A DNA stretch of 22,888 nt. It comes from Leptospiraceae bacterium. GTDB taxonomy: Bacteria; Spirochaetota; Leptospiria; Leptospirales; Leptospiraceae. The translations under genes and the position numbers were made by a program. Below the pieces are notes generated by a model. That model searched no databases, was not told the DNA's origin, and saw nothing but the letters and a program-made list of their open reading frames with translations. Below are positions 1,600 to 11,126 of this stretch, piece after piece. The stretch covers positions 1 to 22,888 of the forward strand of contig JADJSX010000013.1 of the NCBI GenBank assembly GCA_016711485.1, written 5' to 3'. Each line of letters starts with the position of its first letter. The stretch's first letter is position 1.

Positions 1600-1998
1600 T
1601 TAATTAAGTTTTGAAAAATCAGCCTTATCAGCCTTATCAGCCTTAAAATATTCAAAAGCTTCTCTACTTTTAAATCCAATAAGATGACTTCTATACGTAT
1701 TGTTTTTGTTTTTACTGAACCCTGCTTTTGATAATGCTCTGCCAATTCCATTGATATTAAAAGATAATTTCGGGTGATTGGTTGATAAAAATTCTAGAAC
1801 TTTAGAGGCTGTTAGCCATTTTGCGCTTTCAGATTCTTTTCCTGCCGGTTCAAAGTGTCTGCCTATTACATCGTATTCGTTATGATTGCGTTCGTATTGT
1901 CTTGCGTTATCTATGATCTCATTTTCTTCTTTTGGGGATAAAAGAATTTCGTTTCCTTCGAGTTCAAGGTATTCGTTATATACCTGTGCTAATACCAT
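1600..1998 (-). CDS. C-terminal fragment of a phage/plasmid primase-type replication protein (fragment 3 of 3)
   Basis: The 132-aa ORF overlaps the end of the P-loop ORF by 10 nt in another frame, so it looks like a downstream continuation after a frameshift. No independent RBS is evident. Confidence 0.35.
   Translation of the reverse strand: MVLAQVYNEYLELEGNEILLSPKEENEIIDNARQYERNHNEYDVIGRHFEPAGKESESAKWLTASKVLEFLSTNHPKLSFNINGIGRALSKAGFSKNKNNTYRSHLIGFKSREAFEYFKADKADKADFSKLN
1618..1654. repeat. 9-bp tandem repeat (atcagcctt) x about 4, in-frame, encoding (KAD)n at the C-terminus of the 1600-1998 ORF
   Basis: Direct reading: agccttatc agccttatc agccttatc agcctta. The translated ORF ends ...FKADKADKADFSKLN. 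Confidence 0.8.
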
Positions 1999-2552
1999 TC
2001 CTTATTGATTCTAAGGAATTTATCGAATTTTAATTTTTCCTCTACGGTAACTACTATGAATCTACGATTTTCGGTATCCCATAAAGGCTCTTCTACGTTG
2101 CATGAGCCAAGAAACGATACTGTTCTGTTGAATCGCTCTGGGTCTTTTCCGTAAGCCCTTCTTGCGATTGCTCCCGTATTTGAAATGAATCCTCTCAGTT
2201 GATCTGCTTCAAAACGATTGCTTGCGATTCCTTCCAATTCGTCTAAGTCCCAAAACATACATGTTGAGGCTAATTGTAAGCTGTCTTTAGATTTGAATTC
2301 GACATACCTTGCCGAATTCTGATATTTCGCTCTGATAAATGCCGGAGCAAAGTTTGTGCAAAATATTGTTTTGCCCTTACCGCCTCTATCTGACTGAATA
2401 AGGAAGCAATATTCGTTAATGAAATTTGGAACGAATACAGAATGAATCGCCATCGTATACCATTTTTTGAAATAATGTGCAACATCTATTTTATTGGTAT
2501 ATTTGAAACAGTTGACCATTTCACTCAAATAATCCTTATCCCCTTTTTCCAT
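1989..2552 (-). CDS. P4/D5-family primase C-terminal NTPase domain (SF3-helicase-like P-loop) fragment, also called VirE-like
   Basis: Walker A DRGGKGKT and Walker B-like FWDLDEL are present. The stretch GAIARRAYGKDPERFNRTVSFLGSCNVEEPLWDTENRRFIVVTV matches the conserved TGGD-x-ar-x-y...tN-x-P...wRR...i-x-F block of the phage/plasmid primase P4-family C-terminal domain. It is flanked by a stop and a frame change relative to the upstream N-terminal ORF. Confidence 0.55.
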   Translation of the reverse strand: MEKGDKDYLSEMVNCFKYTNKIDVAHYFKKWYTMAIHSVFVPNFINEYCFLIQSDRGGKGKTIFCTNFAPAFIRAKYQNSARYVEFKSKDSLQLASTCMFWDLDELEGIASNRFEADQLRGFISNTGAIARRAYGKDPERFNRTVSFLGSCNVEEPLWDTENRRFIVVTVEEKLKFDKFLRINKEWY

Positions 2553-2649
2553 TTGCCGTTAAATGATTGAATGTATTCGATGAGTGGGTTATAATTTCTG
2601 ACAAAAGAAGAATTGAGGCTAATACGAATTGTCGACGGATGAACATCTT

Positions 2650-3108
2650 TTAATTTTGGATTAGTAAGGAGTTCTTTGTAAACGTCGTTGAATATAATTT
2701 CACTCCATTGCCTGAATTCTGTTTCGTTTTTCTTTTGTATTCGATGAGTCCTGAAATAGTATCTCTTCTGAAATCGTATTTAGCGGATAACGCCGATTCG
2801 AGAATAGTAAACTCTGTAGTTTCGTTTACGGAAAAATTTACAAAATCTTTTTTCTCTTTTTTCTTTTCGGTTACTGGTTGATAGGCGACTTGGAATTTGG
2901 CTTTCAATTCCGCATTTGTAATTTCTTTTATTCTACTTTCGATAAATCCCTTATAGGATTTTTCGACTTTGTTCATGATCGAAATGGAAGGACATTCTAA
3001 AATAATTTCCTTATCAGTATTTTTAACTACTGTCAACGGATGAATGAATAGAGTGTATTCCCCTAGTGCCACATCAGACTTCAATAAATTTAAAACTTCT
3101 TGCCACAT
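2650..3108 (-). CDS. N-terminal fragment of a replication initiator with a DnaA-N-like start (fragment 1 of 3)
   Basis: MWQEVLNLLKSDVALGEYTLFIHPLTVVKNTDKEIILECPSISIMNKVEKSY resembles the DnaA N-terminal domain pattern lWqq-x-L...f-x-Wi-x-pL...l-x-l-x-pn-x-f...v. A TAA stop is followed in-frame by more ORF, then a +1 shift into the P-loop ORF. Confidence 0.4.
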   Translation of the reverse strand: MWQEVLNLLKSDVALGEYTLFIHPLTVVKNTDKEIILECPSISIMNKVEKSYKGFIESRIKEITNAELKAKFQVAYQPVTEKKKEKKDFVNFSVNETTEFTILESALSAKYDFRRDTISGLIEYKRKTKQNSGNGVKLYSTTFTKNSLLIQN

Positions 3109-3109
3109 A

Positions 3110-3394
3110 CTACGCCGCTTTCCTTTTTGTTATTTTTTTATTTTGTGTAATGGAGATATTTTTATAAGCCAATTTATTATCTAGTATAGAGCGTTCGCCT
3201 ACTAGTTGTTTGCCTGTGAGATGAACAAGATTTTTTAGCAGTAGAGCCAAGTCTTCTATCGTGGAATTTTGAATAATGTCAGATGGAATTGCAGGTAGAA
3301 AGAATTCTATATAGAATTTATCTATCTTGAGTGTATTTTGTAACTCTAAGGATTTCTTTCGTGGCTCTATGATTTGCTTTCTGTCGTTGTTCAT
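3110..3394 (-). CDS. Hypothetical phage protein, 94 aa
   Basis: ORF is tightly packed with its neighbours (a 3-nt gap to the next start). It lies in the same orientation as the integrase module. Confidence 0.4.
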   Translation of the reverse strand: MNNDRKQIIEPRKKSLELQNTLKIDKFYIEFFLPAIPSDIIQNSTIEDLALLLKNLVHLTGKQLVGERSILDNKLAYKNISITQNKKITKRKAA

Positions 3395-3404
3395 AATTAT
3401 AAAC

Positions 3405-3617
3405 CTAGTCCTGATTTGTAATTCGATACGGAATATTTAGCTGATCTGCGATAGCGAAAAGATTCTCTTTCTCGATATGCTTTACTAAGCCCTTATGGTA
3501 ATTTCTTGCCGTGCTTGCAGAGATTTTAAGAAAATTCTGCAATTCTCCAGCATCAGAAAATCTTATTTGCATTTGACTAAATGCCTCCTGTTCTAGTTCT
3601 TCTACTGTAGTAATCAT
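3405..3617 (-). CDS. Small HTH DNA-binding protein, excisionase/AlpA-like
   Basis: 70 aa. The segment LKISASTARNYHKGLV looks like a helix-turn-helix. The gene overlaps the integrase stop by 4 nt (ATGA-type coupling) and sits immediately downstream of int. Confidence 0.5.
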   Translation of the reverse strand: MITTVEELEQEAFSQMQIRFSDAGELQNFLKISASTARNYHKGLVKHIEKENLFAIADQLNIPYRITNQD

Positions 3618-4501
3618 TTGGATTCCCTTTCTAAGTTTTTATAATTCTCGAAATGTTGTTTGTTGATTGCGGTTACATCTACGTTAGCCTTAACTAGATA
3701 GTATTTTTTTACTGTAGCTTCTGAGTTTCCGAAAGCGTCTTCGCAAAGTTCATGTAAAGGAATTTGCGGATTTTCCTTGATGACTTCGTTAATTGATTTG
3801 TGTCTGATTAAGTGCGGTCGAATAGGTCTAGTCGTAAATTTACTGGCATCCCTCATCCACTTCTGAACGGTTCCTACTGCAATATGTTTTTTGGTAGAGA
3901 CGGGACTTTGGAATAACCAGATAGTAGAGCCAAATTCGATGACTATATTTTCATATAGCTCTTTAGGTATCCAAGTTTCGAATTCATATCCGCCTTTTCG
4001 TAAAAACCGGATAGAGTAGCCTTGGCTGATTTTTTCAAATCTGCAATTGCTTAACTTTATCTTAATTGTTTCCGTTACCCTCAGAGATGTTGTATTAATG
4101 AAGTCAATGAGTAGAGCTAATCGGATATCTGAATTCTCTTTTGCTAGTCGTAAGTCTTCTGGCGTTGGAATATCATTCGACATGACTGTTTTCGTAACTA
4201 ATCTTATCTTGAATAACTTAAGGGCTTCTCTGTAATATATTTCCTGTTCTTGTATTCTTGCTCTGAATAGAGTTAGTCGAACGATATGTATAATTGCCTT
4301 GCGTAAATTGCTTTTACTCGACATTCCTATCGTGCGTGTTTCTGAATAATTTTGTAGAAACCGAAGCGCATTATTCGGTGTTAGCCCGTCTTTTTTTTGG
4401 TCTAAGAATTTCTGGAAATGGATCCCGTAATATTTGTAGTTTCTCGAAAGTGGGGGTTCTAATATTTTTAATGTTTTTTTTAGGTTTGGAGGCTTTTTCA
4501 T
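3614..4501 (-). CDS. int: Tyrosine-type site-specific integrase/recombinase
   Basis: 295 aa. Box I is LRVTETI (catalytic Arg). Box II is RPHLIRHKSI (H-x-x-R-H). The C-terminal KKYYLVKA supplies the catalytic Tyr. A SAM-like N-terminal region is present. Confidence 0.8.
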   Translation of the reverse strand: MKKPPNLKKTLKILEPPLSRNYKYYGIHFQKFLDQKKDGLTPNNALRFLQNYSETRTIGMSSKSNLRKAIIHIVRLTLFRARIQEQEIYYREALKLFKIRLVTKTVMSNDIPTPEDLRLAKENSDIRLALLIDFINTTSLRVTETIKIKLSNCRFEKISQGYSIRFLRKGGYEFETWIPKELYENIVIEFGSTIWLFQSPVSTKKHIAVGTVQKWMRDASKFTTRPIRPHLIRHKSINEVIKENPQIPLHELCEDAFGNSEATVKKYYLVKANVDVTAINKQHFENYKNLERESK

Positions 4502-4581
4502 AGTTTTTTATCGACTAGGGAAAACCGGAACTTTAAGCTAGTTTTGCTTTTGTTTAGTATCTGTATAGTAGAGTGTCAGTC

Positions 4582-4589
4582 CTGCTGGT
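4582..4589. repeat. 8-bp direct repeat ctgctggt, left copy (putative target-site duplication)
   Basis: An identical 8-mer is present at 4733-4740, immediately outside the inverted repeats. Confidence 0.6.
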
Positions 4590-4732
4590 CAATGTCATTA
4601 AGTTAAGGATTTCTAACCACGAAGAGCACGAAGTTCACGAAGGATTTTCAATGTAATCTTCTCTTTTCTTCGTGTTCTTCGCGCCCTTCGTGGTTAATTT
4701 TTTTTCTGTTTTCTTAACTTAATGACATTGGG
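4590..4732. mobile_element. MITE-like miniature inverted-repeat element (143 bp), or alternatively an att-site palindrome
   Basis: A 19-nt terminal inverted repeat caatgtcattaagttaagg (4590-4608) pairs with tcttaacttaatgacattg (4712-4730), matching at 18 of 19 positions. The element is flanked by the 8-bp direct repeats ctgctggt and contains an internal long hairpin plus a T-run. It has no coding capacity. Confidence 0.55.
4615..4707 (+). terminator. Long imperfect hairpin followed by T8. A rho-independent terminator-like structure inside the MITE-like element.
   Basis: aaccacgaagagcacgaag (4615-4633) pairs with cttcgtgttcttcgcgcccttcgtggtt (4669-4696), using the repeated cacgaag/cttcgtg units. 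The run taatttttttt follows at 4697-4707. Confidence 0.5.
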
Positions 4733-4740
4733 CTGCTGGT
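4733..4740. repeat. 8-bp direct repeat ctgctggt, right copy
   Basis: Pairs with 4582-4589. Confidence 0.6.
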
Positions 4741-4801
4741 GAACAATGTATGGACTACTGCATAAAAAGTAAACACTTTGTTCGAAAATACTTAGTGCGA
4801 C

Positions 4802-4828
4802 TTGACAAAACTGGTATAAGCGTAAAAT
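4802..4828 (+). promoter_or_regulatory. Candidate sigma70-type promoter for the cyclase gene (TTGACA-15-TAAAAT), giving a near-leaderless start
   Basis: ttgaca lies at 4802-4807 and taaaat at 4823-4828. The ATG is at 4836. The spacer is short, at 15 nt. Confidence 0.2.
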
Positions 4829-4835
4829 CGAATCT

Positions 4836-6044
4836 ATGCTTCGTAGACAAATTTCGATTACACTCGCAAGATATTTTAGATTACATCTAAAAGAAGAATT
4901 AAATAAAAGTGAAGATTTATTAAATCTAATTACTCTCGAAGGAATTCCCTTTCGAGAATTGACCGCAACCATGTGCGCCAATTTAGAAATTGATTTTCCC
5001 GAATTACGAACATTAGCCGATCCTGAATTTAATTTATTTCGGAAATGGAATTCAAAATGGAAAACCAACGAATCAAAAGTTTTGGATTATGAAAAATCAA
5101 CTTACAAACTTTACAATCAAATTTATTACGAAAGAATTTTAGACCTTTCAAAAGGAACAAAAGAAAGTCGTCTCAAATTGGAAGAAAAATTAAAATCTCA
5201 GCTAAGTAAATCTAGTTTTTTTGGGCATCGTGTTACGTTTGGACTTTTTTTTCAAGGTGAAAGTTATATGCGTGAGTCTATTCGTGAAATTTTTTCTCTT
5301 CAAAATGAATTTTCATCTGAAGAAGCATACCAAATTCTTTTAGAACAAAGTGATTTTATCGCTAAATGCGGTTACGATTATTTTGATTCTATCGTTCAAG
5401 AAGCCTACGAAAAAAGTGACTCTCTTTTGAAAAATATTTTGCCAAATTCAGTTGCGGAAGAGCTAAAAGCAAATGGAAAAGTAACTCCGATTCATGTAGA
5501 TGCTGCGACTGTTTTATTTACAGATTTTTCTGGATTTACAAAAATTTCAACGCGAATGAGTCCGCAAGAATTAATCCGCGAACTAGACATTTGTTTTTCC
5601 GCCTTCGATTCCATTATAGGAAAATACAATTTGGAAAAAATTAAAACCATCGGCGATGCTTACCTTTGTGTGGGAGGACTTTTTGGAAATGACCCACTTC
5701 ATGCAGCAAACTCTTGTTATGCGGCATTAGAAATTTCTGAATTTATTCGAAAACGAAAATTAGAGAAAGAAAAATCAGGTTTAGAATATTGGGATATTCG
5801 AATAGGACTTCATACCGGCGAATTAGTAGCAGGTGTCATTGGTGATAAAAAATTTGCATTTGATATTTGGGGGGATACAGTCAACACCGCAAGCAGAATG
5901 GAATCGAGTGGAGAAATTGGGAAAATCAATGTATCAGAACAACTTTATCAGGCAACTAAAGACAAATTTCATTTTGTTCCTCGATGCGAATTTGATGTAA
6001 AAGGCAAAGGTAAAATGAAACTATTTCTATTAACGTCAGGTTAA
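4836..6044 (+). CDS. Class III adenylate/guanylate cyclase with an uncharacterised ~200-aa N-terminal domain
   Basis: The C-terminal CYC domain is clear: VLFTDFSGFTKIS...KTIGDAYLCVGG...RIGLHTGELVAGVIG...FDIWGDTVNTASRMES...G-x-I-x-VS. This gives the metal-binding Asp, transition-state Asn/Arg and the dimer-interface motifs. Confidence 0.85.
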   Translation: MLRRQISITLARYFRLHLKEELNKSEDLLNLITLEGIPFRELTATMCANLEIDFPELRTLADPEFNLFRKWNSKWKTNESKVLDYEKSTYKLYNQIYYERILDLSKGTKESRLKLEEKLKSQLSKSSFFGHRVTFGLFFQGESYMRESIREIFSLQNEFSSEEAYQILLEQSDFIAKCGYDYFDSIVQEAYEKSDSLLKNILPNSVAEELKANGKVTPIHVDAATVLFTDFSGFTKISTRMSPQELIRELDICFSAFDSIIGKYNLEKIKTIGDAYLCVGGLFGNDPLHAANSCYAALEISEFIRKRKLEKEKSGLEYWDIRIGLHTGELVAGVIGDKKFAFDIWGDTVNTASRMESSGEIGKINVSEQLYQATKDKFHFVPRCEFDVKGKGKMKLFLLTSG

Positions 6045-6167: not shown

Positions 6168-6917
6168 TTACAATATCCCAAATTCCGCACAATATTTTTT
6201 AAAAAGTGCAAAACCGGAGAGGTCATTTGGTGTTATCCGGTAGTGCAATTCGTTTTTTAGATAGGTGTTTAACATTATCTGCGTAAATCTTTTTTCGGAA
6301 AGTATAATTTCATCTATATGTAAAAGTCCATATTCCAGAGATTCTAGAAAAAAAGAGTCAGGGTATATTTTGGTTTTAGGAAAAGCCCAAAATGCAAATA
6401 CAAAAGAAAATCCTGTCTCTTCATTCCACCATTGTGCTAAATCTCTGACTTCGTAAACCGAAGAATCCCATTCTGCCAGAAGTGCATTATCTCCAAATAA
6501 CAAATGGGAACTTTTTCCAGTTTGAATTTTTTCCAATATTTGGTTTGGCTCTGTTGGAATAACGTTAATCAATCTTCCAGTTTGTTTTTTAAGTAGAGTT
6601 TGTATTAGTGCTACACTACTACGAGATCCAGAATCTGTATAAATTTCTTCAGGTGGAAAATTTTCATTTTTATTTTTAAAAAACAATATAGAACGAACTT
6701 TGTCTTTAGCACAAACTCCGCATACTCTGGCATACGAAAGAACGGATTCATTTCGAATACATTCCACAGAAGAAATGAGCGCAGTATCCAAATCTCCTCG
6801 TAACAATAAATCTTTTAGAACAGATGGATTTTCATATACCAATTCATGATTTCCTAATTTTTCGAATCCATACGTGAGTGGGCGTGCATTCAAGTGTTTT
6901 ACAATTCCGATTTTCAT
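6168..6917 (-). CDS. mqnA: Menaquinone biosynthesis (futalosine pathway) protein of the MqnA/MqnD family, a chorismate dehydratase-like enzyme
   Basis: The N-terminus MKIGIVKHLNARPLTYGFEKL...GDLDTALISSVE matches the riG-x-i-x-yLN-x-x-PL...G-x-lD-x-al-x-S signature of the MqnA/MqnD (VitK2 biosynthesis) fold. The length is 249 aa. Confidence 0.7.
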   Translation of the reverse strand: MKIGIVKHLNARPLTYGFEKLGNHELVYENPSVLKDLLLRGDLDTALISSVECIRNESVLSYARVCGVCAKDKVRSILFFKNKNENFPPEEIYTDSGSRSSVALIQTLLKKQTGRLINVIPTEPNQILEKIQTGKSSHLLFGDNALLAEWDSSVYEVRDLAQWWNEETGFSFVFAFWAFPKTKIYPDSFFLESLEYGLLHIDEIILSEKRFTQIMLNTYLKNELHYRITPNDLSGFALFKKYCAEFGIL

Positions 6918-7033
6918 ATTAATGCTAGATTTATGGAATAGACTTTTTTGGAAATTAGGAATTTAGTAACACAAATCGAAATTAGCCGCTATAGATAAAA
7001 TATCTCTATTCAAAGTGTTAGCGATCAACTGGA

Positions 7034-7062
7034 TGAATCGAACAGTTGTATCGTTCGATTCA
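7034..7062. promoter_or_regulatory. 10-bp-stem hairpin (tgaatcgaac / gttcgattca) in the mqnA-helicase divergent intergenic region
   Basis: Perfect inverted repeat at 7034-7043 and 7053-7062 with a 9-nt loop. There is no T-run on either side. Confidence 0.4.
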
Positions 7063-7076
7063 GGAAGGCGAGCGCG

Positions 7077-7126
7077 GCGCTAATTTCGGATGCTTTAAAA
7101 ACTTTTCGCGCATCCGAAATTAGCGC
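7077..7126. promoter_or_regulatory. Perfect 17-bp inverted repeat (gcgctaatttcggatgc - N16 - gcatccgaaattagcgc). Candidate operator or structured element upstream of the XPB-like helicase.
   Basis: The arms are 7077-7093 and 7110-7126 and are exact reverse complements. A third copy of the 10-mer cgaaattagc occurs at 6977-6986. There is no flanking T-run, so it is unlikely to be a simple terminator. Confidence 0.5.
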
Positions 7127-7222
7127 AACACCCAAATCCTTTATCGAAAAAATACCCATATTTTATGCTTGACAGATAGGCTCAAATTTTCACGCTGTAG
7201 GTGCCTTTTTAAGGAGAAGTTT

Positions 7223-8968
7223 ATGAGTAAACCATTGATTATACAGAGCGATAAAACCCTTTTACTAGAGGTTGATAACCCTGAATTTGAAGAGTGTAGA
7301 GCGATCATTTCTCGCTTTGCAGAATTAGAAAAAAGTCCAGAATACTTACATACCTATCGGATTTCCCCTCTTTCTTTATGGAATGCGGCGTCGTCTGCTA
7401 TGTCAGCAGATTTGATTGTAGAAGGTCTTGAGAAATACGCGCGTTATTCGATTCCTAAAAATGTTGTGAATGATATCCGTGAACAAATCAGCCGTTACGG
7501 CAAAGTGAAATTAGTCAAAGAAGAAAACGGAGAACTTGTCATTATATCTAACGAGAAAGGATTCTTACAAGAAATTGCAAACCATCGCGCGGTGCAACCT
7601 TTCATCCAAGAAAGACTTTCGAACGAAAAAATTGTAGTAAAAAAAGAATACCGAGGTCATATCAAACAGGCTCTTATCAAAATTGGATTTCCTGTGGAAG
7701 ACTTAGCTGGTTATGATGAAGGAAATAAATACGGTTTCAACCTACGCCCTCTTACCCGCGATGGTAGAAAATTCGGAATGCGTGATTATCAACGTGCATC
7801 GATTGAAGTATTTCATGCCGGTGGACGAAACGAAGGCGGCTCTGGTGTAGTAGTGCTCCCTTGCGGTGCAGGAAAAACTATCGTCGGAATGGGTGTGATG
7901 CAAATCATCGGTGCGGAAACTTTGATCTTAGTTACAAACACACTTTCGATTCGTCAGTGGAAAAATGAAATTCTGGATAAGACCGATATACCTGAGTCCG
8001 ATATTGGCGAATACTCCGGTGAAACCAAAGAAATTAAACCAATCACAATTGCGACTTACAATATTTTGACTCACCGCAAACGAAAAGGATCTGATTTTAC
8101 TCACTTCCATATATTCAGTGCGAACAACTGGGGACTGATTGTATATGATGAGGTTCACTTACTTCCTGCTCCTGTATTTCGCATGACGTCTGAGTTACAA
8201 GCGAAACGTCGTTTGGGACTAACGGCTACTTTAGTTCGAGAAGATGGTCTAGAGGAAGATGTATTTAGTTTGATTGGTCCTAAGAAATACGACGTACCTT
8301 GGAAAGAACTAGAAAATAAATCTTGGATTGCGGAAGCTAAATGTGTCGAAATTCGTGTTCCGATGGACGAGGATTTAAGACTACGTTATTCTATCTCCGA
8401 TGACCGCGAAAAATTCAGATTAGCCTCCGAGAATCCTGAAAAAATGACTGCGATTCAACTAATCCTAGATCGTTACAAAGAATCTCATATTCTTATCATT
8501 GGTCAATATATCAATCAGTTGGAAACAATTGCAGAGAGATTTAAAATTCCTTTAATTACTGGTAAAACTCCGTTAGGCGAAAGGCAAGAACTTTACACCG
8601 CATTTCGATCTGGTGCAATTAAGACTTTAGTAGTAAGTAAGGTTGCCAACTTTTCTATTGACTTACCCGATGCAAACATTGCGATCCAAGTTTCTGGAAC
8701 ATTTGGTTCTAGACAAGAAGAAGCACAGCGGTTAGGTCGTATTTTGCGCCCGAAAGAAAGCAATAACACGGCTACTTTCTTTTCTCTTATTTCTCGTGAT
8801 ACAAGCGAAGAGAGATTTGGACAAAATCGCCAATTGTTCCTGACTGAGCAGGGTTATGAGTATGAAATTTATACTCTAGATCAGTTTCAAGAGACAGGAT
8901 TACTGAGTGAAGGAAACCGATTTCCGGCTCAGTCCATTTCGGAGCCTGAAGTAACAGGAGTTTCTTAA
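7223..8968 (+). CDS. XPB/ERCC3-family SF2 DNA repair helicase (bacterial XPB homologue)
   Basis: The N-terminal ~150 aa resemble the XPB damage-recognition domain. Helicase motif I is VVVLPCGAGKTIVG, motif II is YDEVHLL and motif III is LGLTATLVRED. Motif VI is QRLGRILRP, and the C-terminal RecA2 domain is present. A strong RBS aaggagaagttt precedes the ATG at 7223 (the ORF track starts at an upstream in-frame ATG at 7169). Confidence 0.85.
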   Translation: MSKPLIIQSDKTLLLEVDNPEFEECRAIISRFAELEKSPEYLHTYRISPLSLWNAASSAMSADLIVEGLEKYARYSIPKNVVNDIREQISRYGKVKLVKEENGELVIISNEKGFLQEIANHRAVQPFIQERLSNEKIVVKKEYRGHIKQALIKIGFPVEDLAGYDEGNKYGFNLRPLTRDGRKFGMRDYQRASIEVFHAGGRNEGGSGVVVLPCGAGKTIVGMGVMQIIGAETLILVTNTLSIRQWKNEILDKTDIPESDIGEYSGETKEIKPITIATYNILTHRKRKGSDFTHFHIFSANNWGLIVYDEVHLLPAPVFRMTSELQAKRRLGLTATLVREDGLEEDVFSLIGPKKYDVPWKELENKSWIAEAKCVEIRVPMDEDLRLRYSISDDREKFRLASENPEKMTAIQLILDRYKESHILIIGQYINQLETIAERFKIPLITGKTPLGERQELYTAFRSGAIKTLVVSKVANFSIDLPDANIAIQVSGTFGSRQEEAQRLGRILRPKESNNTATFFSLISRDTSEERFGQNRQLFLTEQGYEYEIYTLDQFQETGLLSEGNRFPAQSISEPEVTGVS

Positions 8969-9027: not shown

Positions 9028-9060
9028 TTAACATTGTATTTACAGTTTAAGGAGAAGCCT

Positions 9061-10110
9061 ATGAAAAAGTTTTTTTTAATTCTATTTTTATTACAGATTC
9101 CTAGGTTTCTCCAAAGTGATACAATGCAATTTCAAGATGGAAAGGTTATTGATAATGTAAAAATTAACTTTCAGAAAGATACAATTGAAATTCTCTACGA
9201 GAATGGAAAAAAAGTAGTTAAAAAAAAAACTGACTTAAAAAAAGTAAGGATAAAGTTAAATGAAGTAACTTGGAATTCTGAGAAAACTCGAAAAGATAAG
9301 AATAAAAAAGAGTTAGTACAACTATTAAAAGAGAAAGTAAAAAGAAAAAAAATAGAAGAAGAAAAAAAGGCAAAAGAGAAAGAAAAGGAAAAAGAATCAG
9401 AAGAAGAAAACGTAGAGTCAAACAAACCAATTCCTCAAAATATTGAAGGCGAGTTAGCACTTTTGGAAGAATTACGAGAATTAAACTTTCCAATGTCACC
9501 TAAGATTGTAGAAGAAAGAAAATTGCATGATGTTCTTATGAAGGAAAGAGTCCGACTACAATATACAGAAGGACTTCTTTCTTACTCCGGCGGACAATTA
9601 CTGTATACTGAAATTATGGAAAAGAATTCCGACCGTTATTATGTGAAAAACCAATTCGGCTTATTTTATTTTACTTCCAAAGATTTTGGAGAGGAAATTA
9701 TCATTGAGACAGACAATGGTAAAGAAGAAATTCCAATTTCCAAGGTATTAGCAGTAAAAGATGAAATTTACCTAAAGGGATTTATTTATTTGGTAAGTGG
9801 AGAAAAATTTCGAGGGAAAATTTTAAAAATTTTGGGCGACCAAATAATTATAGAAAAAAATTCACAAGAGGTTCGGATATCCGCAAGTGATATACTATTC
9901 CCCAAAATTCCAAAAGAAAATCCAACACCGATAAAAATAAATATAGCGGAAGGGGAAAATGGAATTTATGTGCTCGCAAATGGGCAATCAATTGACGGAA
10001 AATTGATTAAAATTACAAAAAATTATTTAATCATAGAAACATCCTACGGTACATTAGAAGTTGAATTGTCCAATTTATTATCTGTAAATAAATCTGAGGG
10101 AAAAAAATGA
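9061..10110 (+). CDS. Secreted / lipoprotein-like hypothetical protein with a Lys/Glu-rich linker and four copies of a ~40-aa beta-module
   Basis: Signal peptide MKKFFLILFLLQIPRFLQS with RBS aaggagaagcct. KE-rich low complexity covers residues ~80-130. The repeated motif occurs at approximately 9124-9249, 9646-9753, 9781-9903 and 9964-10086 (see findings). Confidence 0.7.
   Translation: MKKFFLILFLLQIPRFLQSDTMQFQDGKVIDNVKINFQKDTIEILYENGKKVVKKKTDLKKVRIKLNEVTWNSEKTRKDKNKKELVQLLKEKVKRKKIEEEKKAKEKEKEKESEEENVESNKPIPQNIEGELALLEELRELNFPMSPKIVEERKLHDVLMKERVRLQYTEGLLSYSGGQLLYTEIMEKNSDRYYVKNQFGLFYFTSKDFGEEIIIETDNGKEEIPISKVLAVKDEIYLKGFIYLVSGEKFRGKILKILGDQIIIEKNSQEVRISASDILFPKIPKENPTPIKINIAEGENGIYVLANGQSIDGKLIKITKNYLIIETSYGTLEVELSNLLSVNKSEGKK
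9220..9229 (+). repeat. A10 homopolymer inside the coding region of the secreted protein
   Basis: gttaaaaaaaaaactg encodes KKK and is in-frame as sequenced. Confidence 0.8.
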
Positions 10111-11126
10111 AATACAAATACGAAATAAAAACTTACTTTTTAATTTTGATTTTATTTTTTCCTTATAAAACTATATATACTCAATCTAAAGAAGACGTTG
10201 ATACAATAGCGAAATCAAAAATTCAGTCCTTAAATTTTATAGGAAAAAAAGACGTTAGTGAAACTCTTCCCGATTTAAGTTCTTATCCTAACTTAATAAG
10301 CCTTGATTTAAGCGGCTCATTGATTCAGAATAATGATCTTGTACATATCAAAAATCCTAAGTTAAATTATCTATCATTAGCAAATACTGTAATCAATAAT
10401 GATGGAATAACATTTCTAACAAACTTAAAACAAATAAGAAGTTTAAATCTTGAAGGGACTGCAATAAACGATTCATCTATGCCTATAATATCTCGTTTAT
10501 ATTGGTTAGATCGATTAGATATTGGTCGTACGAATGTTACGGATAATGGAATTAAGTCTCTCCAAAATTTAAAACTTTCTAGATTAGACCTTACCTCGTT
10601 AAAAATAACAGATGAAAGTATGGTATATGTAAGCACCTTAGAAAATCTAAAAGAATTACATTTATGGAACACCAGTATAACTTCGACAGGACTCAATGAA
10701 CTTCAAAAATTATCCAATCTGCAAGTTTTAACTCTTGGTGGATCCGGCATTGGAGATGATGGTTTAAAAAACATTGCGAAACTCAAAAAACTTAAGTCTT
10801 TAAATCTATCTTGGACGAGGATAACGGATAATGGACTTGAATATCTCATGGCGAACCCATCGATTGAAGTATTAAATTTGAGTGGGACTAAAGTGACAAG
10901 TAATGGACTAAAGAAGATAACTACATTAAAAAAACTAAAAATTCTCACTTTGGAGGATACTCGTTTGGAGAATAACGTTGAAAGTATACTTTCAAGTATC
11001 CCCAAACTGAAAGTGTTGTATATTAATAGTTTCTCAATGAATAAAAAATCAAGTGAATCCTTAGCTAAAAAAATACCTTGGTCTGCTATTTATTTCGAAA
11101 AAAATTTAGTTTCAATTATAGAATAA
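10107..11126 (+). CDS. Leucine-rich repeat (RI-like LRR) secreted protein
   Basis: N-terminal hydrophobic signal. About 10 tandem 24-25-aa repeats of the form L-x-x-L-x-L-x-x-T-x-ITD-x-G/L-x-x-L (for example LNLSGTKVTSNGLKKITTLKKLKILTL). It overlaps the upstream gene by 4 nt. Confidence 0.85.
   Translation: MKYKYEIKTYFLILILFFPYKTIYTQSKEDVDTIAKSKIQSLNFIGKKDVSETLPDLSSYPNLISLDLSGSLIQNNDLVHIKNPKLNYLSLANTVINNDGITFLTNLKQIRSLNLEGTAINDSSMPIISRLYWLDRLDIGRTNVTDNGIKSLQNLKLSRLDLTSLKITDESMVYVSTLENLKELHLWNTSITSTGLNELQKLSNLQVLTLGGSGIGDDGLKNIAKLKKLKSLNLSWTRITDNGLEYLMANPSIEVLNLSGTKVTSNGLKKITTLKKLKILTLEDTRLENNVESILSSIPKLKVLYINSFSMNKKSSESLAKKIPWSAIYFEKNLVSIIE

Follow-up and report, generated by a model that had tools for sequence, protein, structure and literature searches.

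An XPB-Type Helicase Gene of a Leptospiraceae Bacterium, and the p52/Tfb2-Like Gene That Adjoins XPB in Most Other Prokaryotes Sampled

The XPB Gene of the Window

The DNA analyzed here, referred to below as the window, is a stretch of 22,888 nucleotides (nt) from a Leptospiraceae bacterium (assembly GCA_016711485.1, contig JADJSX010000013.1, positions 1–22,888 of the forward strand). At positions 7223–8968 of the plus strand it carries an intact open reading frame (ORF) that is a true orthologue of XPB, the helicase known from eukaryotic TFIIH. Bacterial XPBs have been known since 1997, and the window gene is an already known, ordinary annotated member of the family, named “DNA repair helicase XPB” across Leptospira at NCBI, where an equivalog model assigns the name automatically. 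It adds nothing new by itself and serves as a data point on the in vivo role of bacterial XPB; its interest, which is modest, lies in the lineage-specific absence of a p52-like neighbor and in unusually strong conservation. More interesting than the gene itself is a widespread prokaryotic pair of XPB and a p52/Tfb2-like gene, which is located outside the window. The parts of the coding sequence, with the evidence for each in brackets, are as follows.

7223–8968, plus strand: XPB coding sequence, 581 amino acids (aa) plus stop (NF045503, Pfam, PDB, AlphaFold2, Foldseek)
7223–7597, plus strand: N-terminal domain (NTD), p52-clutch-type fold, aa 1–125 (PF13625 and AlphaFold2 model)
7598–7771, plus strand: candidate compact linker domain resembling a damage-recognition domain (DRD), approximately aa 126–183 (AlphaFold2 model, colinearity)
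7772–8302, plus strand: RecA1, aa 184–360, with motifs Q, Walker A, Ia, DEVH, TAT, and RED (PF04851 at aa 184–338)
8303–8878, plus strand: RecA2, aa 361–552, with motifs V and VI (PF16203, E = 1e-48; match to the human XPB C-terminal domain, 4ern)
8879–8965, plus strand: disordered, lineage-variable C-terminal tail, aa 553–581 (predicted local distance difference test, pLDDT, below 50 at aa 560–581)
aa 187–190: Q motif RDYQ
7865–7879: Walker A, GAGKT, aa 215–219
8147–8158: DEVH, aa 309–312
8222–8230: TAT, aa 334–336
8237–8245: RED (R339-E340-D341), XPB-specific, directly after motif III
8726–8749: motif VI, QRLGRILR, aa 502–509

The automatic ORF list had this reading frame begin at a TTG (7169–8968, plus strand). 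We rejected that start, because the TTG is the first three nucleotides of a conserved TTGACA, a Shine-Dalgarno sequence (AAGGAG, 7211–7216) lies 6 nt ahead of the ATG at 7223, and MSKPL is the N-terminus in all aligned XPB homologues. A preliminary description of the window, made from the sequence alone, had already set the gene at 7223–8968; the ORF is real, and the Shine-Dalgarno sequence and the N-termini of homologues agree with its ATG. The four motifs named there (GAGKT, DEVH, TAT, and QRLGRILR) were all located in the translation. Motifs Q, I, Ia, II (DEVH), III, RED, V, and VI are all intact, and in an alignment of 19 XPBs, with identities down to 34%, motif positions are invariant or nearly so, the RED triad being at least 90% conserved.

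Family Identity and Domain Architecture

The NCBIfam equivalog NF045503 (repair_heli_XPB, model length 548) matches aa 4–549 with 870.3 bits against a cutoff of 610, and TIGR00603 (rad25) reaches 351.5 bits against a cutoff of 328.7. Pfam families PF13625 (aa 5–132, E = 1e-30), PF04851 (ResIII), and PF16203 (ERCC3_RAD25_C, aa 363–552, 166 bits) follow one another along the chain. The best phmmer matches in the PDB are yeast Ssl2 (E = 3e-83) and human XPB (E = 9e-83), the human alignment running in one stretch over aa 2–552. AlphaFold2, run on the alignment, gave a confident model (pLDDT 84.3; predicted template modeling score, pTM, 0.80) that confines disorder to the last 22 residues, and a Foldseek search with it ranks XPB chains of TFIIH first (template modeling score, TM, 0.72–0.74 over approximately 580 columns, 30–32% identity), archaeal XPBs second (whole-chain TM 0.3–0.5), and unrelated superfamily 2 (SF2) enzymes far below. 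The preliminary description had placed the protein with XPB rather than UvrB or RecG, and the two above-cutoff models and the eukaryotic structure matches bear this out. A profile comparison with other SF2 families, set beforehand as the refuting test, likewise upheld XPB: Res, RecG, RadD, and DEAD families fell far below their cutoffs, with 15–56 bits for the RecG, RadD, Hef, Dnd-restriction, and Snf2 models (cutoffs 600–1100). Most spirochaetes and actinobacteria are reported to have an XPB (Balasingham 2012).

Some of the same searches could be taken to mean that the gene encodes a restriction or defense SF2 helicase (type III Res, Dnd/Pbe-type, or type IV) rather than XPB, given the ResIII match at aa 184–338, PADLOC matches to PbeA (80 bits) and mREase_IV (24 bits), a dnd_restrict_1 match of 55.6 bits, and a remnant with integrase, VapE, and DnaA_N ORFs at 1600–4501 of the window. 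However, the defense matches cover the generic RecA core only and stay below cutoff (600 for dnd_restrict_1, vs. 870 bits and a cutoff of 610 for the XPB equivalog), no methylase, nuclease, or other defense partner lies nearby, and the gene is conserved in single copy across Leptospira-clade loci. With sub-threshold core matches and no partner genes, we consider this explanation effectively refuted and its probability minute.

As modeled, the window XPB has the four-domain, eukaryote-like layout of NTD, small and probably DRD-like unit, RecA1, and RecA2; human XPB consists of an NTD of mixed alpha/beta fold, a DRD-like domain, RecA1, and RecA2 (Greber 2019). The window NTD is itself modeled as a mixed alpha/beta fold (pLDDT 86–96) and aligns to residues 129–254 of yeast Ssl2 and to human XPB (8ebt_A) from chain residue 22, in construct numbering. 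In TFIIH, the XPB NTD and the homologous “clutch” domain of p52 form a pseudo-symmetric dimer (Greber 2019). The preliminary description had called the N-terminus “damage-recognition-type,” a label we had to abandon, as aa 5–132 are PF13625, the eukaryote-type XPB NTD and not the archaeal DRD. The archaeal DRD and the bacterial and eukaryotic NTD have been judged unrelated, and the point about the N-terminus of bacterial XPBs was made in the same study (Balasingham 2012).

Residues 126–183 are modeled as a beta-beta-alpha-beta unit (pLDDT 80–91) that is colinear, in full-length sequence and fold alignments, with the region of human XPB between NTD and RecA1. They have no sequence match to the DRD of the archaeal AfXPB, whose alignment begins at aa 181, and probably form a DRD-like unit without the approximately 70-residue eukaryotic insertion. 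The domain order had been described as that of eukaryotic and archaeal XPBs alike; eukaryotic XPBs match over the full length, and archaeal XPBs only from aa 176–181 onward. Other XPBs have a different C-terminal tail or none, and that of the window protein lies beyond the NF045503 model.

A p52/Tfb2-Like Gene Beside Prokaryotic XPBs

Representatives clustered at 50% identity were searched exhaustively, and 998 clusters belong to the XPB family at E ≤ 1e-30. A scan of one genome per species gave at least 600 matches, and the best 80 loci were taken for gene-context work; they represent several archaea as well as at least 15 bacterial phyla, at 52–61% identity to the window XPB. We searched all ORFs of these loci with a hidden Markov model (HMM) of the NTD and counted a locus as informative if it had a partner or at least 4 kb of sequence downstream of XPB (n = 65). 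A second NTD-like domain, in an ORF of 550–800 aa near XPB, was present in 44 of the 65. This p52-like ORF usually follows XPB directly, on the same strand, and in many cases overlaps its stop codon. When all ORFs lying up to 4 kb from XPB in the 80 genomes were clustered all-vs-all, it was the only widely recurrent neighbor (46 loci), and no nuclease family recurred. The partner-bearing loci (in the range L009–L086) are spread over many bacterial phyla and include archaeal ones (Thorarchaeota L071 and uncultured archaea L056 and L073). Examples of the partner gene are:

L021, 4250–6337
L042, 13768–15990
L067, 11640–13745
L081, 1722–3794
L080 (an actinomycete), 3035–5473

The partner proteins contain PF27388 and PF13625 and give sub-threshold matches to Tfb2; the actinomycete copy ends in a WYL domain. 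A profile built from 22 partner sequences and searched against the PDB found Tfb2 of Chaetomium thermophilum (E = 4e-8), yeast Tfb2 (E = 1e-6), and human p52 (E = 8e-6). The C. thermophilum alignment (profile positions 237–468 against chain residues 90–328) runs well N-terminal of the clutch and into the body of p52. Because a p52-like gene adjoins XPB at most of the informative loci, the gene neighborhoods hint that the XPB–p52 submodule of TFIIH is older than eukaryotes and suggest a prokaryotic origin for it. The literature that we searched held no description of a prokaryotic pair of XPB and a p52-like protein, and searches on Leptospira XPB, ERCC3, and RAD25, on Rv0862c, and on XPB with WYL returned nothing relevant. 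Chloroflexota loci were observed to carry two tandem partner paralogues.

These neighborhoods change what is notable about the window. The preliminary description had drawn attention to the lack of an adjacent Bax1-like nuclease, and this was confirmed, as Bax1-type (DUF790-type) and other nuclease families had no match among window ORFs of at least 100 aa. However, in the sampled genomes the usual companion of an NTD-bearing XPB is p52/Tfb2-like and never a Bax1-type nuclease; with the p52-like gene the only widely recurrent neighbor and no recurrent nuclease family, the absence of Bax1 is to be expected, is the rule for this type of XPB, and calls for no special explanation. Bacterial XPBs have no identified Bax1 partner (Balasingham 2012). 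What is notable for the window XPB is the missing p52-like neighbor, not the missing Bax1. Separately, one Hydrogenedentes locus that has no p52-like neighbor (L015, 11640–14855) encodes an AddB-type helicase-nuclease (ADDB_N plus PD-(D/E)XK) that starts just before the XPB stop, the sole nuclease directly linked to XPB in the sample.

No p52-like gene was found in the window, which covers 7–14 kb around XPB, or within 7–10 kb in L001, L004, L005, L007, L011, L014, L087, L088, and L089. The NTD HMM and an HMM of the full-length partner match XPB alone in the window, and XPB itself was again their only match in L001–L007; precomputed Pfam annotation lists no PF13625 among the neighbors in L087–L089. 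The gene is thus absent, within 7–14 kb, from every informative locus of the clade formed by Leptospirales together with L011 and L014 (the flank of L008 is too short). Other Spirochaetia (L067 and L081) do have it.

The partner gene may have moved elsewhere in these genomes, so that XPB would still belong to a two-protein module in which its NTD docks the clutch of the partner and regulates the ATPase. The frequency and breadth of the pairing, together with the E-values of 4e-8 to 8e-6 to Tfb2/p52 structures, speak for such a module, and linkage is loose in some genomes, with the partner of L041 lying 6 kb upstream on the opposite strand. The domains of XPB itself also fit: identity to other Leptospirales is 68–82% for the NTD, 61–79% for the putative DRD-like unit, 90–95% for RecA1, and 67–83% for RecA2, so that the NTD is conserved as much as RecA2 and has been kept although no partner is encoded in cis. 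Against a relocated partner stand the flanks of XPB in the window and at the nine other loci, where no such gene occurs, and a search of a 5.8-billion-protein set with spirochaete-type partners, which (with a single sequence and with an iterated profile) returned the same 38 proteins, none labeled Leptospira; this search used an index of shared 5-mers on a family only 23–31% identical, and is not a true negative. We regard a relocated partner as possible but doubtful.

Conservation and Inheritance

The closest database XPBs (95–97% identity) are those of Leptospiraceae metagenome-assembled genomes (MAGs), and XPBs of Leptospira and other Leptospiraceae (L. venezuelensis, L. ryugenii, L. bourretii, L. 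ognonensis, and a MULTISPECIES Leptospira cluster) are 84–87% identical. Two relatives, L087 and L088, have XPBs 96.7% identical to that of the window and share its downstream block. XPB is the most conserved protein of this block, ahead of serine hydroxymethyltransferase (SHMT; 94.9%), a metallo-beta-lactamase-fold hydrolase (91.5%), a 150-aa hypothetical protein (82%), a rhomboid protein (77%), and lipoate ligase (70%), with surface proteins at 45–56%. The latter values indicate that the surface proteins beside the slow-evolving XPB evolve very fast.

XPB is present as a single copy and conserved in every Leptospira-clade locus examined, including species of several Leptospira groups. In a neighbor-joining tree the window sequence falls inside a Leptospirales clade whose sister is a pair of other spirochaete MAGs, and the GC content of the gene equals that of SHMT (both 0.40; window mean 0.35). 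Phylogeny had been proposed as a check on vertical vs. horizontal descent; the clade position and graded identities, together with the GC content, argue that XPB is inherited vertically within Leptospiraceae.

Leptospiraceae thus hold XPB under very strong constraint with no p52-like companion in cis. One explanation, which we advance tentatively and think rather unlikely, is that the XPB of Leptospirales is naturally “clutch-less”: an ancestral p52/Tfb2-like partner would have been lost, and NTD and enzyme would have stayed under stronger purifying selection than SHMT. If so, the role of the NTD would be partner-independent (self-regulation of RecA2, homodimerization via the same beta-sheet, or a new partner), and XPB function would be near-essential in these spirochaetes.

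Gene Neighborhood

The other genes and ORFs of the window discussed here are:

1600–1998 and 1989–2552, minus strand: split fragment of a VapE-like primase/helicase (DUF3874)
2650–3108, minus strand: DnaA_N-domain ORF
3614–4501, minus strand: tyrosine recombinase/integrase-like ORF
4836–6044: class III adenylate/guanylate cyclase
6168–6917, divergent, upstream of XPB: mqnA (PF02621)
9034–10110, downstream of XPB: Leptospira-type secreted protein (Lepto_7_Nterm)
10107–11126, downstream of XPB: leucine-rich repeat (LRR) protein

The flanking mqnA, the surface-protein cluster, and the secreted products downstream that the preliminary description had reported were all recovered, through PF02621, Lepto_7_Nterm, and LRR matches. 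The segment 9034–12003 holds two Lepto_7_Nterm secreted proteins, one on each strand, and the LRR protein; genes in it are only 45–55% identical to their syntenic counterparts, vs. 96.7% for XPB. The cyclase gave a sub-family match to the Pycsar protein PycC (PADLOC, 56 bits), which most likely reflects generic cyclase-domain similarity, as no effector gene is adjacent.

Gene order downstream of XPB is collinear over 10 kb in the window, L087, and L088. Upstream, the window has mqnA and the adenylate cyclase, L087 has two He_PIG/FG-GAP proteins, and L088 has CsgG and PP2C genes; synteny breaks at 7144 in the window and at approximately 9920 in both L087 and L088. With a syntenic downstream side and a different upstream side in each close relative, XPB sits at a rearrangement breakpoint. 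Beyond this variable flank, the minus-strand ORFs at 1600–4501 make up a mobile-element remnant.

Such a setting might suggest that XPB was recently acquired by horizontal transfer, as cargo brought to a site where a mobile element inserted: every close relative has its own upstream flank, the remnant with its integrase lies 2.7 kb upstream, and the GC content of the gene exceeds the window mean. However, relatives share the order of XPB and the genes downstream of it, which leaves the breakpoint on the upstream side only, the gene occurs throughout Leptospiraceae with clade-congruent identities, and its GC excess is the same as that of SHMT. Recent transfer is therefore disfavored, and we hold it to be very improbable.

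The gene that follows XPB differs among lineages. In L001–L003 (multispecies Leptospira) and in L. ognonensis it is an aminotransferase gene; in deeper Leptospirales and the two spirochaete MAGs it is a DUF4015 gene. The latter abuts or overlaps the XPB stop in L004 (9723–11936), L005 (9768–12035), L011 (11661–13616), and L014 (11649–13625), and its products are 29–42% identical to one another. We considered the DUF4015 protein as a replacement partner and rejected it, as it combines a BNR/beta-propeller-like N-terminus with a putative glycosyl-hydrolase TIM barrel and has no DNA-related domain; its place beside XPB probably reflects operon synteny that was inherited, and no functional link.

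Upstream Region

Upstream of the ATG, the window is nearly identical to L087 and L088 from 7144 onward and unrelated to them before that position. Alignment with these two relatives thus delimits the following feature:

7144–7222, plus strand: promoter-proximal block, 79 nt, with TTGACA at 7169–7174 and the Shine-Dalgarno sequence noted above

A promoter scan found no sigma-70 consensus, including a −10 element, upstream of the ATG, and the promoter in this block is putative.

The preliminary description had also noted a strong palindrome ahead of XPB. The palindrome exists, at 7077–7126 (24-nt arms, 17 nt of them perfect), but its link to XPB did not hold up, as it lies outside the block shared with relatives. 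It is adjoined by a second hairpin with a 10-bp stem (7034–7062). Together the two (7020–7126) fold at −50.2 kcal/mol (z = −6.2) with no T-run, and they occur only in this window, next to the boundary at 7144, and may be the border of a segment that was rearranged or inserted. A terminator was rejected for lack of a T-tract. An operator of XPB was rejected as well: the palindrome belongs to a strain-specific segment outside the 79-nt block common to relatives with 97%-identical XPBs, and so does not count as a conserved element of XPB.

No match to the published SOS box of Leptospira (TTTGN5CAAA) lies in this 79-nt block, and across the window the box occurs at chance level (25 observed vs. 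30.8 expected). We accordingly rejected control of XPB by LexA and the SOS response.

Proposed Role

We consider it very likely that the window gene is the chromosomal, vertically inherited, catalytically intact XPB orthologue of an uncultured Leptospiraceae bacterium, with a likely function as a DNA-dependent ATPase in DNA repair or processing. By homology with characterized XPBs, the protein would most likely work as a DNA-dependent ATPase, clamping duplex DNA between RecA1 and RecA2 and opening it, by 3′→5′ translocation or unwinding, for a repair or processing reaction; XPB of Mycobacterium tuberculosis (Mtb) is a 3′→5′ helicase and DNA-dependent ATPase (PMC3353954). The gene would be transcribed alone, from the putative promoter in the short promoter-proximal block, and the enzyme would operate with neither a nuclease nor a p52-like partner encoded in cis. 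Because the NTD is under strong purifying selection, it probably mediates a protein contact or autoregulates RecA2; in TFIIH, p52 stimulates the XPB ATPase via the NTD (Greber 2019 and other TFIIH work). Repair is the default reading, and XPB would act alongside the canonical UvrABC system: uvrA, uvrB, uvrC, and uvrD are listed for Leptospira, which makes up a separate nucleotide excision repair system (PMC3789691), and a Leptospira UV-C study found uvrA-D present and not induced.

Several points weigh against a repair enzyme acting on its own. As the conserved upstream block has no SOS box, induction by damage is unsupported, and as neighbors vary among Leptospiraceae lineages, gene context gives no clue to a pathway. 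Translocation by isolated eukaryotic XPB is not measurable unless the TFIIH core is present, and activity of a solo XPB is therefore not guaranteed. Finally, accessory repair enzymes are not usually more conserved than SHMT, which may be a sign that XPB has another, more central role.

The degree of conservation makes such a role a live alternative, in which XPB would have a housekeeping function other than lesion repair, namely DNA opening or remodeling in transcription, replication restart, or chromosome maintenance. The rank of XPB in the syntenic block (96.7% vs. 94.9% for SHMT), RecA1 identities of 90–95% across Leptospirales, identities of 52–61% to XPBs of other phyla, the lack of an upstream SOS box, and the dual role of eukaryotic XPB in transcription and repair are all in keeping with it. 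However, bacteria have no known need for XPB in transcription, gene context gives this role no support, and XPB is absent from most bacterial lineages (Balasingham 2012) and so is not universally essential. On this balance we judge a central housekeeping role to be unlikely and retain a DNA-dependent ATPase of repair or processing as our preferred reading. The genetically tractable Leptospira biflexa would be a reasonable host for testing whether XPB has a function that is essential or does not depend on a partner.

Comparison with Known XPB Systems

The XPB of Mtb (Rv0861c; Biswas 2009; Balasingham 2012) belongs to the same NF045503 family as the window protein, with an NTD, a helicase core, and the helicase and RED motifs, and neither has the long N- and C-terminal extensions of eukaryotes. 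Their identity is approximately 40% or less; for the actinomycete L080 it is 44–62% per domain. The two lineages differ in gene context, as a p52-like gene with a C-terminal WYL domain adjoins XPB in L080, whereas the XPB of Leptospiraceae has no such neighbor.

The archaeal XPB–Bax1 systems of A. fulgidus and S. tokodaii share homologous RecA1 and RecA2 domains and the RED motif with the window XPB (E = 3e-47). The archaeal proteins have no PF13625 NTD and carry a thumb insertion in RecA2 that docks Bax1, in contrast to the window, which has no Bax1-like gene; bacterial XPBs have a shortened thumb (ThM) or none (Balasingham 2012).

In comparison with eukaryotic XPB/Ssl2, the window protein is without the approximately 55-residue N-terminal extension, the XPD-contacting insertion in the DRD, and the C-terminal extension, and no TFIIH partners are encoded near it. 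It is colinear with the eukaryotic proteins over its full length, at the TM-scores and identities given above, and shares with them a homologous NTD and, given the probable DRD-like unit, the order of four domains. In the prokaryotic module of XPB with a p52/Tfb2-like protein, the second gene (PF27388 plus PF13625, 550–800 aa) is the part that is absent at the window and at informative Leptospirales loci, and the XPB itself is orthologous to the window XPB (52–61% identity) and has the same NTD.

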